Source: a virus
Taxonomy: Duplodnaviria; Heunggongvirae; Uroviricota; Caudoviricetes
Virus record (IMG/VR): IMGVR_UViG_2617271049_000009
Coordinates: 1 to 40,392 of that record
DNA: 40,392 nt
Strand: one strand, 5' to 3'
Shown here: positions 1-39,024 of the stretch, one piece after another
Layout: each line of letters starts with the position of its first letter
Numbering within the stretch: position 1 is the first letter of the stretch
The notes under the pieces: model-generated
Databases searched by the model: none
Seen by the model: only the letters and a program-made list of their open reading frames with translations
Told to the model about the DNA's origin: nothing
Program-made: the position numbers and the translations under genes

Positions 1-468
1 TTATATTTTAACCATTAAGTTATCGAGTACTGATGAAGCTATTCTTTTTATATATCGATAAAGGCCTCTATCTGTCGACTTGGAAAAAGTCAAATAAATC
101 TCCTTCTTTGACTGGGTATCCAGTTTTTTATAGCTTTCGAGAAGAACTTTAATGAACACCTCATCATTAACGATGTTTTTCAACATATCCCTAGATTCTT
201 TTTTTTCATCAGAAGTCATTTCCTTTAAAGATTCAATTGCTATTCTTAACTTTAATTCATCTTCATCTATCCTTTTAATTGTCGCTTCCAAATCCCCTAT
301 GCTTTTATTGATAGATTCAAGCTCACTAAAGCTCTTTGCCATTTCAGTTGCAAGCTCTTCATTAGCCTTAACTTTTTTACGAGTATGCATGATAGATGTA
401 GCTAAGCCTACAATTGCCGCTAAAGAAGACACTATCAACCCAGCATACATAAATATAATATCCTCCAT
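1..468 (-). CDS. hypothetical protein, N-terminal transmembrane helix followed by a long charged coiled-coil-like region (155 aa); second gene of an AT-rich two-gene operon
   Basis: Complete ORF with ATG at 468..466 and stop at 3..1; start overlaps the upstream stop as TAATG (translational coupling); hydrophobic residues ~5-27 then E/K-rich heptad-like sequence; very low GC versus the phage structural genes. Confidence 0.55.
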   Translation of the reverse strand: MEDIIFMYAGLIVSSLAAIVGLATSIMHTRKKVKANEELATEMAKSFSELESINKSIGDLEATIKRIDEDELKLRIAIESLKEMTSDEKKESRDMLKNIVNDEVFIKVLLESYKKLDTQSKKEIYLTFSKSTDRGLYRYIKRIASSVLDNLMVKI

Positions 469-905
469 TACATACCTCTCGTAAACTTAAAGGAGAAAAC
501 AGGCTCACATTCTACCACGTGTTTATTAAATCGTTCGAGAAGATGAAATATAAATATTACAGCCAGTAGTATCACCGTAACTACATAGTACCAGGTATAT
601 ATAATAACTTTTGGCTCACTAACTTTACCGTAAAGATAAGCGAGAATGAAACCACAAAAAATCCCTAAGCAAAAAATAGCTTTATCTCGAGAAGATACAC
701 CGATGGAAAAAGAGTATATTGATGCAGTAATTGTTAATGATTGTATTGAAGGGTGAGTTCCTGTGTTAATTGACTCAAAAAGTAATGGAAGCAACGGGAA
801 TATCATATAGAATATAATACTACCTGTAAAATCACTATATTCTTCACGCCAACCAATTGGCTTTCTGGGAAGTTTATTAGGAAACTCAGAGGTATCTCCA
901 CTCAT
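468..905 (-). CDS. hypothetical multi-pass membrane protein (145 aa from ATG at 905; the ORF extends to a GTG at 998, giving 176 aa)
   Basis: ORF with 3-4 hydrophobic segments; ATG at 905 preceded by GAGAG-like SD; stop overlaps start of the downstream gene; AT-rich. Confidence 0.5.
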   Translation of the reverse strand: MSGDTSEFPNKLPRKPIGWREEYSDFTGSIIFYMIFPLLPLLFESINTGTHPSIQSLTITASIYSFSIGVSSRDKAIFCLGIFCGFILAYLYGKVSEPKVIIYTWYYVVTVILLAVIFIFHLLERFNKHVVECEPVFSFKFTRGM

Positions 906-1196
906 TGTAATTTCTCTCTCAGTAATTTGTGCAACTTTTATCACTGTCAACCATGAGGTAGCAAGGATTTTGATGGCATATTTTAACAAAATATCCACTT
1001 AGAGGTATGAACTTCCGCTTCTGGCACACAGAGCTCTAGAGACAGTGGTGTAAAATCATGGAGAAGCGGTGGGATGAGGTGCTAATCTTTTCATGCAAAA
1101 AATACGTAAAATCAATAACGGCTGGACATCATTCAATACTCACACTATCGAAAGTCCACCATCCAGCCGCAGCAAGTTCTTGCATACGACGTGTCT

Positions 1197-1224
1197 GCGG
1201 GTTCAACTCCCGCCAGCTCCACCA
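1197..1224 (+). other. 28-nt fragment matching the 3' terminus of tmRNA (ssrA): T-arm, acceptor 3' strand and CCA; likely relic attachment-site copy
   Basis: Sequence GCGGGTTCAACTCCCGCCAGCTCCACCA read directly; matches the E. coli ssrA 3' end as I recall it; upstream sequence diverges, so not a complete tmRNA or tRNA. Confidence 0.5.
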
Positions 1225-1768: not shown

Positions 1769-3277
1769 ATGAAACCATCCATAGAACAACTTCTACATAT
1801 CTACGGGCCGATGTCCTCATCTGCCTTAAGAGAAAAACTGATAGCCAATGGCCTAACAGAAGTTAACGCCAGACAGCGAATCTCCCGCGTTGGAGGTGAT
1901 GTTCAACGTTTTACTCATTTTTCTTTGCCCAAAAATGAAGCATTTCTCTATCTGACAAAGGACTATAACTCTCGTCGATATTGGATTGCATTGCTTGAAA
2001 GTCATGTAAATGCAAGAACAGTCTATGCTCACACCTTTTTCGCTTTCCACCCTTATCAAGGGGCGATCCCGACATATCTTTTTAGCAAGGTTTCAGGGAG
2101 TCCGGACAAACTGAAGGGACACATTGCGTCAAGCCGTCTTGAAGCGCAATTGCTTAAAGGTTCAGTTCTGCGTAGGGAAGTTGATGTCGTTTTGGGGGAT
2201 TGTCTTGTTACTTACATAAATAATATTAACGGGGTAACGGATACCCAACATGTCCGAAACCAATTGCTGGTTGAAGATATTCTCATTAAAGGTGTAGCTG
2301 ACTGGATTAGACACAATGGCCTTGGCAGCTTTAATAAGGTCCAAGTCCGTAACTCTCAGAATATGCCTTCATTTAGCCATCACCATTGGGACATATGTGC
2401 TCCGTCATATATTATGCCTTTAGCAACAGTACAAAAAGGTGAAATGAGTAATGGCTTCATTGTTGCAGATGTCATATACAATGATTTAGATAGCAAAAGC
2501 ATCCAAACCTATCTCACGAAAGTACAGCGATGCAGAAATATGCGAAATACTCGCCCGTTTCTAGCTATGCTGATTGCAGAACGTTTTGATCCAGAAGCCT
2601 TTCGCCTTGCGAAACAAGCTGGTGTAATGGCTACAACAGTATCTAACCTACTTGGTCAAGACATTTCAGCACTACTGTCCAGTTTATTAAATACTCTTAA
2701 TCGTGCCGGTGCCATTGCGGCAGCAAACCCAGAAAAAATCAACGAACTATTTAAAGGACTTACGAGGATTGAAGGCGCCGCAATCAATATAAGAGGCGTA
2801 ATGTTTGAAATGTTAGTTGGTCACATCGTACTGAAAACCCAAAATGTCAGCACTGTTGACTTGAATAAACAAATCAGTACCGAGGCAGGTAAGGCTGAAA
2901 TAGATGTGATTGGTTTTAGAGGCGAAGCAGAAATTAAGTGCTACGAATGTAAAGGCTATGAAGTTAAGCGACTAATTTCAGTCGAAATGATCGAAAAGTG
3001 GCTCGAACGAGTTCAACGCATCAGAAAATTCTACAGTCAGATTCATGTGTACCGTGACCGAAAAATGACTTTTTCATTCTGGACCTCATCAGATTTTGAA
3101 CCTGAAGCACTTGAGCTGCTGCTTCATCAGAAGCAAAGAAATACAAAAATATCATTAGACTGGAAAAATGGACGTGACATTCTTTCCATTGTTAAGGAAG
3201 ACAATCTGAAATCAATTGCAGATGTTCTTCAGGAACATTATCTTCGACACCCACTGGCTCCTGATGCAGATATGTAA
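1769..3277 (+). CDS. hypothetical 502-aa protein; predicted N-terminal winged-helix-like region and C-terminal PD-(D/E)xK-like nuclease motif; candidate defence or restriction-type cargo gene
   Basis: Long uninterrupted ORF with ATG start, convergent with the invertase gene; C-terminal segment AEIDVIGFRGEAEIKCYECKGYE fits the hhhD-x(n)-(E/D)xK pattern; lower GC than phage core genes; sits where e14 carries mcrA. Confidence 0.7.
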   Translation: MKPSIEQLLHIYGPMSSSALREKLIANGLTEVNARQRISRVGGDVQRFTHFSLPKNEAFLYLTKDYNSRRYWIALLESHVNARTVYAHTFFAFHPYQGAIPTYLFSKVSGSPDKLKGHIASSRLEAQLLKGSVLRREVDVVLGDCLVTYINNINGVTDTQHVRNQLLVEDILIKGVADWIRHNGLGSFNKVQVRNSQNMPSFSHHHWDICAPSYIMPLATVQKGEMSNGFIVADVIYNDLDSKSIQTYLTKVQRCRNMRNTRPFLAMLIAERFDPEAFRLAKQAGVMATTVSNLLGQDISALLSSLLNTLNRAGAIAAANPEKINELFKGLTRIEGAAINIRGVMFEMLVGHIVLKTQNVSTVDLNKQISTEAGKAEIDVIGFRGEAEIKCYECKGYEVKRLISVEMIEKWLERVQRIRKFYSQIHVYRDRKMTFSFWTSSDFEPEALELLLHQKQRNTKISLDWKNGRDILSIVKEDNLKSIADVLQEHYLRHPLAPDADM

Positions 3278-3505: not shown

Positions 3506-4060
3506 CTAATCCCTGCCTACAGGAAATTTTCGGTATAGTGTTGACACTCCTACATCATAAATTAATGCTACGCGCTGACGCGTTTCTCCTGCAGCGATTA
3601 GTCTCCCTGCCTGCGCCCACTGCTCATCTGTTAGTTTTGGCTTACGTCCACCAATTCGTCCCTGTGCGCGAGCAGCTTCCAGTCCAGCTTTTGTTCGTTC
3701 AACAATCAGTTCACGCTCCATTTCAGCCAGGGCACCCATCACATGAAAGAAAAAGCGCCCCATTGGGGTACTAGTATCAATTGAATCCGTCAGACTACGA
3801 AAGTTGATGCCTCGTTCGCGCAACTCCTCAACCAGAATGACCAGATGCCGCATACTACGCCCCAGCCGATCCAGCTTCCAGACAACCAGAGTGTCACCTG
3901 CCGATAATGTCCTGAGCAGTTTTTTCAGTCCAGGCCTTTCGGACTTTGTACCGCTTATCTTGTCTTCAAAAATCAGCTCGCATCCTGCACAGTTCAGCGC
4001 ATTACGTTGTAGATCTGTGTTCTGGTCATTTGTTGACACACGTACATAGCCAATAAGCAT
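3506..4060 (-). CDS. pin: site-specific DNA invertase, serine recombinase of the Pin/Gin/Hin/Cin family (184 aa from MLIGYVRVSTNDQ)
   Basis: N-terminus MLIGYVRVSTNDQ with catalytic-serine context, resolvase-type domain and C-terminal HTH (YDVGVSTLYRKFP); adjacent to inverted repeats inside a tail-fibre gene. Confidence 0.9.
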   Translation of the reverse strand: MLIGYVRVSTNDQNTDLQRNALNCAGCELIFEDKISGTKSERPGLKKLLRTLSAGDTLVVWKLDRLGRSMRHLVILVEELRERGINFRSLTDSIDTSTPMGRFFFHVMGALAEMERELIVERTKAGLEAARAQGRIGGRKPKLTDEQWAQAGRLIAAGETRQRVALIYDVGVSTLYRKFPVGRD

Positions 4061-4086
4061 GGTAGATCTCCCTAGCAAAAGCAGGA

Positions 4087-4587
4087 ATGATGCCATTTGC
4101 TCGTTATTTCTGCATTTTCATAAACGTTGGTTTGGGAGAAGGTTCGGCATTACCCGTTGGTGTGCCTGTTCCGTGGCCTTCAGCCACTCCGCCAACAGGA
4201 TGGCTGAAATGCAATGGTGCGGCTTTTTCTGCTGAAGAATACCCGGAACTGGCAAAGGCTTACCCGACAAATAAATTGCCTGATTTACGCGGTGAGTTTA
4301 TTCGTGGCTGGGATGACGGTCGTTCAGTAGATACTGGTCGCAGCGTTATGTCTGCACAGAGCGCGCGTGTTGGTTATATTAAATTTGATATGGGAATTTA
4401 TGGTATTCCTGCAGGTACGGGCTCACTTATTTTGTCCAATGATATCTTAATTACGGGTCATGACAGTAATGGCTCAAGCCTATTGCTGAACAACTCTAAT
4501 GAGCGGGCAATTGGTGAAATGTATGTCGTTCCTGCCGATACTCGCCCACGGAATATCGCATTTAACTATATCGTGAGGGCTGCATAA
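4087..4587 (+). CDS. alternative tail-fibre C-terminal variable segment (166 aa), silent in the present orientation; e14 StfE-like
   Basis: ORF begins inside the inverted repeat with the same peptide (MPFARYFCIFINVGL) as the minus-strand copy; stop overlaps start of the downstream assembly gene (TAATG); same length as e14 StfE as I recall it. Confidence 0.65.
   Translation: MMPFARYFCIFINVGLGEGSALPVGVPVPWPSATPPTGWLKCNGAAFSAEEYPELAKAYPTNKLPDLRGEFIRGWDDGRSVDTGRSVMSAQSARVGYIKFDMGIYGIPAGTGSLILSNDILITGHDSNGSSLLLNNSNERAIGEMYVVPADTRPRNIAFNYIVRAA
4089..4145. repeat. left inverted repeat of the invertible tail-fibre segment (contains the putative crossover site near 4115..4140)
   Basis: ~57 bp identical except one mismatch to the reverse complement of 5959..6015; contains a TTTTCATAAACGTTGGTTTGGGAGAA element resembling hix/gix-type sites. 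Confidence 0.75.
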
Positions 4588-5199
4588 TGGATAACGCTGT
4601 ATTAAATAGCGAGTTTATTGCTACAAAGGCGGGAAATATTACCGTCTATAACTATGATGGCGAAACGCGGGAATATATTTCCACTTCAAATGAATATCTT
4701 GCCATTGGTGTCGGTATCCCTGCATATTCCTGTTTAGACGCTCCTGGTACATATAAGGCTGGTTATACAATTTGCCGTTCTGTGGATTTAAAATCATGGG
4801 AATATGTGTCAGACCATCGCGGTGAAATCGTCTATAACACCGAAACGGGAGACGCCAAAGAAATCACAGCTCCGGGTGATTATCCAGAAAATACAACCAC
4901 TATCGCCCCATTAACGCCATACGATAAATGGGATGGTGAGAAATGGGTGACCGATACTGAGGCACNNNNNNNNNNGCGCTGCAGTAGACGCGGCAGAAGC
5001 ACAGCGTCAGTCACTGATTGATACTGCAATGGCTTCCATTAGTCTGATTCAGCTGAAATTACAGGCCGGACGGAATTTGACGCAGTCAGAAACCAGCCGA
5101 CTTAACACGGTGTTGGATTACATTGACGCGGTGACGGCAACAGATACCAGCACCGCGCCGGATGTTATCTGGCCTGAACTGCCGGAGACTGCGCAATAA
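4587..5199 (+). CDS. tail fibre assembly protein (Tfa), interrupted by a 10-N gap at 4966..4975
   Basis: N-terminal part ends at the gap; after the gap a different frame gives the conserved Tfa C-terminus (...DYIDAVTATDTSTAPDVIWPELPETAQ) ending at TAA 5197..5199. Confidence 0.7.
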
Positions 5200-38948: not shown

Positions 38949-39024
38949 TGGTGCCGATAATAGGAGTCGAACCTACGACCTTCGCATTACGAATGCGCTG
39001 CTCTACCAACTGAGCTATATCGGC
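38949..39024 (-). tRNA. thrW: tRNA-Thr (anticodon CGT), phage attachment site
   Basis: Reverse complement reads GCCGATATAGCTCAGTTGGTAGAGCAGCGCATTCGTAATGCGAAGGTCGTAGGTTCGACTCCTATTATCGGCACCA, a 76-nt cloverleaf with CGT anticodon and encoded CCA. Confidence 0.9.

Follow-up and report, generated by a model that had tools for sequence, protein, structure and literature searches.

The first thousand nucleotides of IMG/VR virus record IMGVR_UViG_2617271049_000009 carry two overlapping minus-strand genes, here called A and B, that we read as a self-contained, horizontally mobile, membrane-acting abortive-infection or exclusion module, analogous rather than homologous to RexAB of phage lambda. We put the probability of this reading at about one half. 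The stretch of DNA analyzed, referred to as the window, is 40,392 nucleotides of Escherichia coli sequence that spans a whole prophage integrated at thrW. Base composition, rarity, cassette behavior, residence in moron slots, replacement by AbiTii or OLD-type genes and the company of defense genes together form the standard signature of an anti-phage module, and the two proteins point to an action at the inner membrane that is probably controlled from the cytoplasmic side.

The gene pair and its products

A scan for open reading frames (ORFs) shows that positions 1-998 are filled by two minus-strand ORFs, as stated in the original prediction, which had gene A run from 468 to 998. That extent has to be shortened to 468-905, with an ATG start. 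The RefSeq-style gene begins at GTG 998 and encodes 176 residues, a 31-codon (93 nt) extension of the form adopted here. This start was rejected because the extension contains an in-frame TAG in the Pectobacterium copy, because all five differences between the E. coli and Citrobacter-type copies within it are non-synonymous, and because distant homologs begin at the equivalent of ATG 905. The ATG, which yields a protein of 145 residues, is preceded by a GAGAGAG Shine-Dalgarno sequence. The stop codon of A (TAA, 470-468) and the start codon of B (ATG, 468-466) have base 468 in common, within ATGTAATG, so that the TAATG overlap described earlier is confirmed. On the minus strand the junction reads ...AGAGGTATGTAATGGAGG (AGA GGT ATG TAA TGG AGG), and a GAGAGG Shine-Dalgarno sequence lies 7 nt upstream of the B start, inside the end of gene A. 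The two genes are translationally coupled.

Ratios of non-synonymous to synonymous substitution (dN/dS, Nei-Gojobori) are 0.06-0.18 for gene A and 0.26-0.31 for gene B. Both genes are under purifying selection and, by this coding-potential test, which the earlier note had named, both ORFs are real genes. The low GC content it had remarked upon is equally apparent, at 0.335 for positions 1-905, compared with 0.509 for the whole window and 0.537 for the phage body. In a promoter scan of the 5' flank, promoter-like hexamers were not above the chance level expected from shuffled sequence.

Protein A is a multi-pass membrane protein, as had been proposed. Its AlphaFold2 (AF2) model, based on 62 sequences, has four confident helices, at residues 21-48, 54-71, 75-95 and 103-131 (pLDDT 92.7, pTM 0.81). 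Near-invariant residues are P37, P40 and E44 in the first transmembrane helix (TM1), Y64 and S72 in TM2 and G93 in TM3, and an extension of TM4 bears the near-invariant motif H121-x2-E124-R125-x-N127-x-H129. TM2 (IQSLTITASIYSFSIGVSS) is rich in Ser and Thr, is the least hydrophobic of the helices, and could well serve to line a pore or as the interface of an oligomer. By the positive-inside rule and charge distribution, both ends of A are predicted to be cytoplasmic, so that the H-x2-ER-x-N-x-H patch would face the cytoplasm.

In protein B, an acidic N-terminus is followed by a membrane helix at approximately residues 5-27, the sequence HTRKKVK and then a helical domain, which by the positive-inside rule is predicted to lie in the cytoplasm. 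The family motif L-x-Q-x-S-x2-G-[RK]-x2-Y-x2-K-[LI] is found at its C-terminal end and reads FSKSTDRGLYRYIKRI in the window copy. The AF2 model of B is all-helical and of low confidence (pLDDT 51), and was therefore left out of the fold search. B had been described as a single-TM coiled-coil protein. One N-terminal membrane helix and an all-helical remainder are indeed seen; the coiled coil, for which there are the composition, weak coiled-coil Pfam hits and a model of such low pLDDT, is not confirmed.

Word-indexed searches return three relatives of A and nine of B, all from the Enterobacterales. A tblastn search of phage genomes adds a 36%-identical A in Peduovirus P2_4A7b, followed 9 nt on by a 163-residue protein with the layout of B. 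This pair sits between the tail-fiber assembly gene and the sheath gene, the G-FI moron slot of P2-like phages, which we take to be the position of Z/fun in P2. A profile that includes the P2_4A7b B protein finds 23 relatives of B, and exhaustive HMMER searching with an A profile finds 403 clusters (at 50% identity) with E <=1e-3, 101 of them with E <=1e-10; the 150 best-scoring of the 403 range from 97 to 255 residues. The clusters sampled come from at least eight phyla and have 1-8 members each, every named member being called hypothetical. A genome scan locates A members in Vibrio, Acinetobacter, Shewanella, Gallionellaceae, Verrucomicrobiia, Gemmatimonadota, Dehalococcoidia, Prochloron, Saprospiraceae and Gemmataceae. 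At 17 or more of the 21 genome loci, the gene immediately after A is a B-type ORF, with spacing from a 19-nt overlap to a 36-nt gap; these ORFs encode 110-165 residues with an N-terminal membrane helix and the common C-terminal motif. A and B are co-inherited from the Proteobacteria to the Chloroflexi, Cyanobacteria and Planctomycetes. There is no third conserved gene, as 67 neighbors from 17 diverse loci share no family.

Four of the 149 representatives of A (P0031, P0036, P0048 and P0125) possess an N-terminal Cauli_VI/RNase H1 hybrid-binding domain, with PF01693 on record for P0036 and P0048. The fused domain matches the N-terminal domain of yeast RNase H1 (1QHK) with a phmmer E-value of 0.0011, and in both contigs read, those of P0036 and P0048, the gene after the fused A is still a B-type ORF. 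These fusions are evidence that the N-terminus of A is cytoplasmic, and suggest a link between the module and the sensing of double-stranded RNA (dsRNA) or RNA:DNA hybrids. In two representatives, A has a C-terminal coiled-coil extension with no added membrane helix. The A tail of P0142 (L058 4878-11100) contains RYIEKL, and no separate B is present; next come a 458-residue AAA-like protein and then a 1,383-residue TPR protein, and the locus is possibly a fused variant with a STAND-like pair attached. Aligned with the B profile, the tail matches only at RYIEKL, with a non-significant probability of 0.5%; from its sequence, P0142 is suggestive of an A-B fusion.

Some B proteins show R-[NE]-x3-H at one aligned position, namely IRNKLVHG in Shewanella, HRNLLVHA in L036 and LREQMVHG in L043. 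The Shewanella protein alone matches the HEPN_RiboL-PSP, Swt1 and HepT Pfam models, in each case below the gathering score. The HEPN catalytic motif R-x4-6-H is absent from the B of the window, which reads SRDMLKNI and has no histidine. The R-[NE]-x3-H sequence may be the trace of a HEPN-like ancestor, rather than a property of the window locus.

A mobile cassette at the distal end of the island

At the nucleotide level, the E. coli copy is homologous to copies in three unrelated contexts from approximately window position 1031 to position -311, a length of 1.34 kb. On the 5' side, the first positions homologous to the Citrobacter-type and Pectobacterium cassettes are at 998-1031. The first context, a phage-like one, includes Dam and RNase H. 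The second is a CP4-57-like island in which the pair adjoins Mrr, ScoMcrA-HNH and YjiT/V, and the third a Pectobacterium island with AbiU (PADLOC 1e-195) and PDC-M04A/DUF3800 as neighbors. Both genes are 100% identical between the copies in the first and second contexts. The cassette occurs in 6 of 5,426 complete E. coli genomes, a further rarity count giving 2 of 5,426, and in all 15 loci checked the GC content of the pair is 5-20 points below that of its surroundings. The A/B pair is a horizontally acquired, discrete mobile cassette, which bears out the acquisition claimed in the original prediction.

The 3' flank of the cassette, 310 nt to the left of window base 1 (L001 19690-20000), diverges at the synonymous (neutral) rate and consists of broken pieces of a convergent ORF, the 110-codon frame of which is intact only in Pectobacterium. 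Immediately after the B stop codon is a GC-rich hairpin (GCGCGAGA-loop-TCTCGCGC). A small gene or small RNA was considered for the flank and rejected: synonymous-rate divergence, the lack of codon periodicity and the broken frames mark it as hitchhiking DNA, not a third element.

Base 1 of the window is the last base of the B stop codon. In E. coli MEI7BO1-21, which is 99.9% identical, 555 nt without a gene lie to its left, followed by a 46-nt repeat of the 3' half of thrW (555-600 nt left of base 1; L001 19400-19445) and, beyond that, by the yagP pseudogene and paoDCBA. The repeat is the distal att of the island, and the integrase and proA adjoin thrW itself. With the partner repeat in this position, the A/B pair is the last cargo inside the island. 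It had been suggested that the operon might continue past the left edge; the stop codon at base 1, the non-coding DNA after it and the att repeat rule this out.

Between the att repeat and the ssrA-relic block at 1010-1389 lies a slot that holds different genes in other E. coli strains. In FT130 it contains a 564-residue AAA_15/AAA_21 ATPase, best matched by NsnB, AriA, Old and GajA, together with a 94-residue protein, and in LR-62-2 it contains AbiTii (Pfam 6e-45, PADLOC 4e-37) and a DUF6650 protein. In this family of E. coli prophages, the end distal to thrW is a swap-in hotspot, in which AbiTii, the OLD/AriA-like ATPase and the A/B pair interchange.

Relatives elsewhere occupy comparable settings (Table 1). 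The Vibrio anguillarum pair has GTTAGGC core sites at 13-19 and 1032-1038 of its locus, and the inverse core GCCTAAC at 915-921 overlaps the B stop codon; the GTTRRRY core sites and the attC starting at a RYYYAAC inverse core, which define an integron cassette, are found for this homolog and not for the window. One of the two fused-A contigs read has GmrSD beside the gene. The earlier idea of exclusion or abortive-infection cargo thus gains contextual support, from AbiTii or an OLD/AriA-type ATPase in the slot and from AbiU, DarTG, Qat, CBASS, Mrr and GmrSD as neighbors; it gains none from a match to a known defense, abortive-infection or exclusion family.

Table 1. Positions of the A/B genes, neighboring features and related loci. 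Plain numbers are window positions; numbers after an L refer to our other loci.
Feature	Position	Strand	Remarks
Gene A	468..905	minus	145 aa, four-helix inner-membrane protein; stop codon 468-470
Gene B	1..468	minus	155-aa bitopic protein; ATG 468-466
5' flank of cassette	906..1031	minus	Presumed promoter and leader; contains 93 nt mis-annotated as coding in RefSeq
ssrA 3'-end copy	1197..1224	plus	28 nt, exact; neighbor of the A/B module, not part of it
thrW, tRNA-Thr(CGT)	38949..39024	minus	Prophage integration site (ARAGORN)
Slot equivalent of window 1-1000, E. coli FT130	L011 3890-5916		
Slot equivalent of window 1-1000, E. coli LR-62-2	L012 6225-7723		
Fused A (contigs read)	L057 342-1369; L060 3044-4111		
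B proteins with R-[NE]-x3-H	L031 8366-8734; L036 4245-4625; L043 8324-8698		
Homologous pair, E. coli			Beside QatABCD and SMODS-SLATT CBASS; beside NERD-UvrD and T5orf172; near type VI secretion system genes
Pair, Morganella lambdoid prophages			Between Dam and DUF1367/Q in the nin region
Pair, Klebsiella			In an island with DUF4760 and Mrr_cat
Pair, Pectobacterium			In an integrase island with DarT-DarG and a UvrD-like helicase
Pair, V. anguillarum	L027 1-1201		One integron cassette (GTTAGGC ... GCCTAAC-attC-GTTAGGC)

The ssrA core next to the module scores 18 bits as an Rfam tmRNA fragment, against a gathering score of 47. Near-identical prophages lie at the genuine ssrA gene in other strains, including TUM11352, with homology to the window starting exactly at 1197, and the core is an internal relic attP core of ssrA-integrating relatives of the prophage. 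An adjoining ssrA att-like relic had been reported from the start; the exact copy is real, and it is not the boundary of the carrying element, the att of which is thrW. The surrounding block, 1010-1389, recurs, among the best-ranked hits, in nine or more other E. coli genomes with approximately 90% identity and contains no annotated feature; the count of 5,249 genomes matching it includes matches to the ssrA gene itself, as a share not separated from the rest. A strong terminator-like hairpin occurs within the block, at 1351-1374. The block looks like an intact relic attP, with both arms, of an ssrA-integrating ancestor, retained in the thrW-integrated prophages.

Two further features lie on the other side of the relic. 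A plus-strand ORF of 502 codons (1769-3277) belongs to no Pfam, NCBIfam or PHROGs family; its sole PADLOC hit, LmuA-like, is weak (E 0.007, residues 368-485). The ORF accompanies the tail-fiber end of the prophage family, including the copies at genuine ssrA, is replaced by other genes in D9 and LR-62-2, and is possibly a second cargo or defense gene. Next, a pin/pinE-type invertase ORF (3506-4096, minus strand) abuts oppositely oriented tail-fiber and tail-fiber-assembly ORFs; the region 3506-5021 is the invertible segment for host range that is usual in e14/Mu-type tails.

Known systems and alternative readings

All databases label the family as hypothetical. Scans of A, B, 62 relatives of A and 33 of B against Pfam, NCBIfam, PADLOC and PHROGs return only phrog_22626, for A, the remainder being coiled-coil or membrane noise. 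Protein A matches this cluster with an E-value of 1.7e-26 over residues 48-170 of the 176-residue form. The cluster, an unannotated PHROG of unknown function, represents the same family as gene A and is the only library entry that holds it, and it gives no function. B has no significant PHROG match and, against PADLOC-DB v2.0.0, only hits of the coiled-coil type (E 0.005-0.02). Neither accessions nor sequence motifs of the family are present in the literature searched or in the DefensePredictor supplement.

The closest analogy is to lambda RexAB. What we find is likewise a prophage operon of two genes, one of them for a four-helix membrane protein of approximately 140 residues, a resemblance of architecture only. 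RexB has 144 residues and A has 145, each with four membrane helices; both modules combine a membrane partner with a second protein thought to sense infection, and both are lysogen-expressed cargo. In contrast to RexAB, B is half the size of RexA and membrane-anchored, the genes are in the opposite order, that for the membrane protein leading, there is no sequence relationship, and the A/B family spans many phyla. A second comparison is offered by Sucellos (SclA/SclB), an integron cassette of Vibrio cholerae that resembles RexAB; one of its two genes encodes a predicted pore-forming membrane protein, and both are needed for defense (bioRxiv 10.1101/2024.07.02.601686). Like Sucellos, A/B is a small two-gene cassette with a membrane protein, and its V. 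anguillarum homolog is also an integron cassette. Sucellos, however, is described as structurally RexAB-like, whereas A/B has no RexAB similarity, a distinction drawn from how the paper describes Sucellos. Kiwa KwaA, the TM effectors of CBASS, Pycsar and retrons, and SLATT proteins resemble A in being small multi-helix membrane proteins coupled to a sensor, and some A proteins are fused to a nucleic-acid-binding sensor domain, much as those effectors are joined to or paired with sensors. In contrast, A and its 62 relatives match no PADLOC or Pfam model of these families, and the pair has no cyclase, reverse transcriptase or other signal-generating enzyme. A stator-like pair of the MotAB, ExbBD, TolQR or ZorAB type was also considered and rejected: A, B and their relatives have no MotA_ExbB, ExbD or OmpA Pfam hit, and stators combine a multi-pass subunit with a single-pass one that has a conserved Asp in its membrane helix and a periplasmic C-terminal domain, whereas the C-terminal domain of B is predicted to be cytoplasmic.

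A number of results weigh against A/B being a defense module. The case is one of guilt by association, from genomic context. A has no PADLOC-DB hit at E <=1 and none of its 62 relatives has one at E <=0.01, and no relative was found among PDB sequences (by profile search), PDB folds or BFVD. Homology of A to RexB and of B to RexA was rejected: hhalign gives the 62-sequence A profile a probability of 0.7% over 13 aligned columns, with no Pfam hit, and the B profile a probability of 0.2%. The A of the window itself has no sensor domain. Several metagenome-assembled genomes have housekeeping genes next to the pair (citrate synthase, tRNA synthetases and EF-P), and only approximately 10 of the 2.9 million IMG/VR contigs carry the A family. 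Pore formation, topology and A-B contact are inferred, and the model of B is poor.

Four alternatives were weighed. The best placed of these, although unlikely, is superinfection exclusion without abortive infection, in which an A-B complex blocks genome injection or an inner-membrane channel and leaves the cell unharmed. T4 Imm and Sp, P22 SieA and HK97 gp15 are injection blockers that act without harm to the cell. Both A and B are in the inner membrane and the pair is found in classic moron slots (the P2 G-FI position and the Morganella nin region); Z/fun of P2 blocks T5. Known injection blockers are, however, narrow, fast-evolving and lineage-specific, whereas polar residues of A/B are invariant across phyla. 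Moreover, the conserved parts are predicted to be cytoplasmic and the nucleic-acid-binding domain is fused on the cytoplasmic side, so that intracellular sensing fits better than blocking at the surface.

Ranked after exclusion, and improbable too, is an accessory role in the membrane that has nothing to do with phages (for example a channel for ions or small molecules, an envelope-stress response or bacteriocin immunity) and is mobile only because it is dispensable. Pore-forming-colicin immunity proteins are similar in size and topology to a four-helix inner-membrane protein of 130-145 residues, and the pairs among housekeeping genes in metagenome-assembled genomes would be accommodated. Such a function is difficult to reconcile with patchy clusters of 1-8 members, with a GC content that is low everywhere, and with repeated occurrence beside or in place of bona fide defense genes. 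There is no match to a transporter or immunity family, and a fusion to an RNA:DNA-hybrid-binding domain has no obvious place in transport or immunity.

Lower again we place a toxin-antitoxin or addiction system, in which A would be a membrane toxin and B its protein antidote, stabilizing carrier elements and integron arrays. Two small overlapping genes that travel together on prophages, on integrative islands and as an integron cassette are compatible with this, and CbtA/CbeA lies in the same island as the pair in L006; integron arrays are rich in toxin-antitoxin cassettes (bioRxiv 10.1101/2024.07.02.601686). Against it, the pair matches no toxin-antitoxin family, the membrane protein comes first and no DNA-binding autoregulator domain is present. 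The membrane toxins known so far are much smaller proteins than A, and their antitoxins are usually RNAs. Furthermore, some relatives fuse a coiled-coil tail to A where B would be, which a labile antitoxin would not tolerate; the fused tail gave no match to the B profile.

Finally, a lysis-timing device of the prophage, a holin and antiholin-like pair, would agree with the small size of the membrane proteins and with weak Rz-like spanin and LysB hits for B (E 0.006-0.06), and is very improbable, because those hits (spanin E 0.006-0.2, with no holin hit at all) are coiled-coil noise far below cut-offs, because the pair is never in a lysis cassette, the prophage family having its own holin, endolysin and spanin elsewhere, and because it also occurs in non-phage islands and an integron.

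Proposed mechanism and implications

If A/B is the infection-responsive membrane module that we favor, A would oligomerize through its Ser/Thr-rich, weakly hydrophobic TM2 to form a pore or other membrane-perturbing effector, with the cytoplasmic H-x2-ER-x-N-x-H patch as a control point that the C-terminal motif of B could contact. B would then be a sensor or gate. Upon infection the complex might open, the membrane potential collapse and the infection be aborted; alternatively, genome entry might be blocked. For the fused subfamily, the trigger could be a nucleic-acid intermediate (dsRNA or an RNA:DNA hybrid). The logic would match that of lambda RexAB or Vibrio Sucellos, implemented by unrelated proteins.

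More tentatively, and with somewhat less than even odds, the family may be a pan-bacterial minimal immune module, in which a new four-helix effector is gated through H-x2-ER-x-N-x-H by a membrane-tethered helical partner and, in some lineages, is wired to an RNase H1-type domain so that replication or transcription intermediates of the invader are read out as cell suicide. What we regard as credible is that A/B is an uncharacterized, widely distributed, two-gene candidate defense module. If its role in defense is true, a very compact system, two proteins in approximately 0.9 kb, would be added to the known repertoire, and with it a new membrane-effector fold family found on prophages, in satellite-style hotspots, in genomic islands and in integron cassettes across many phyla. 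Small size and an invariant polar patch make the module experimentally tractable, and the fusions to a hybrid-binding domain offer a direct way to approach what membrane effectors of this kind detect.

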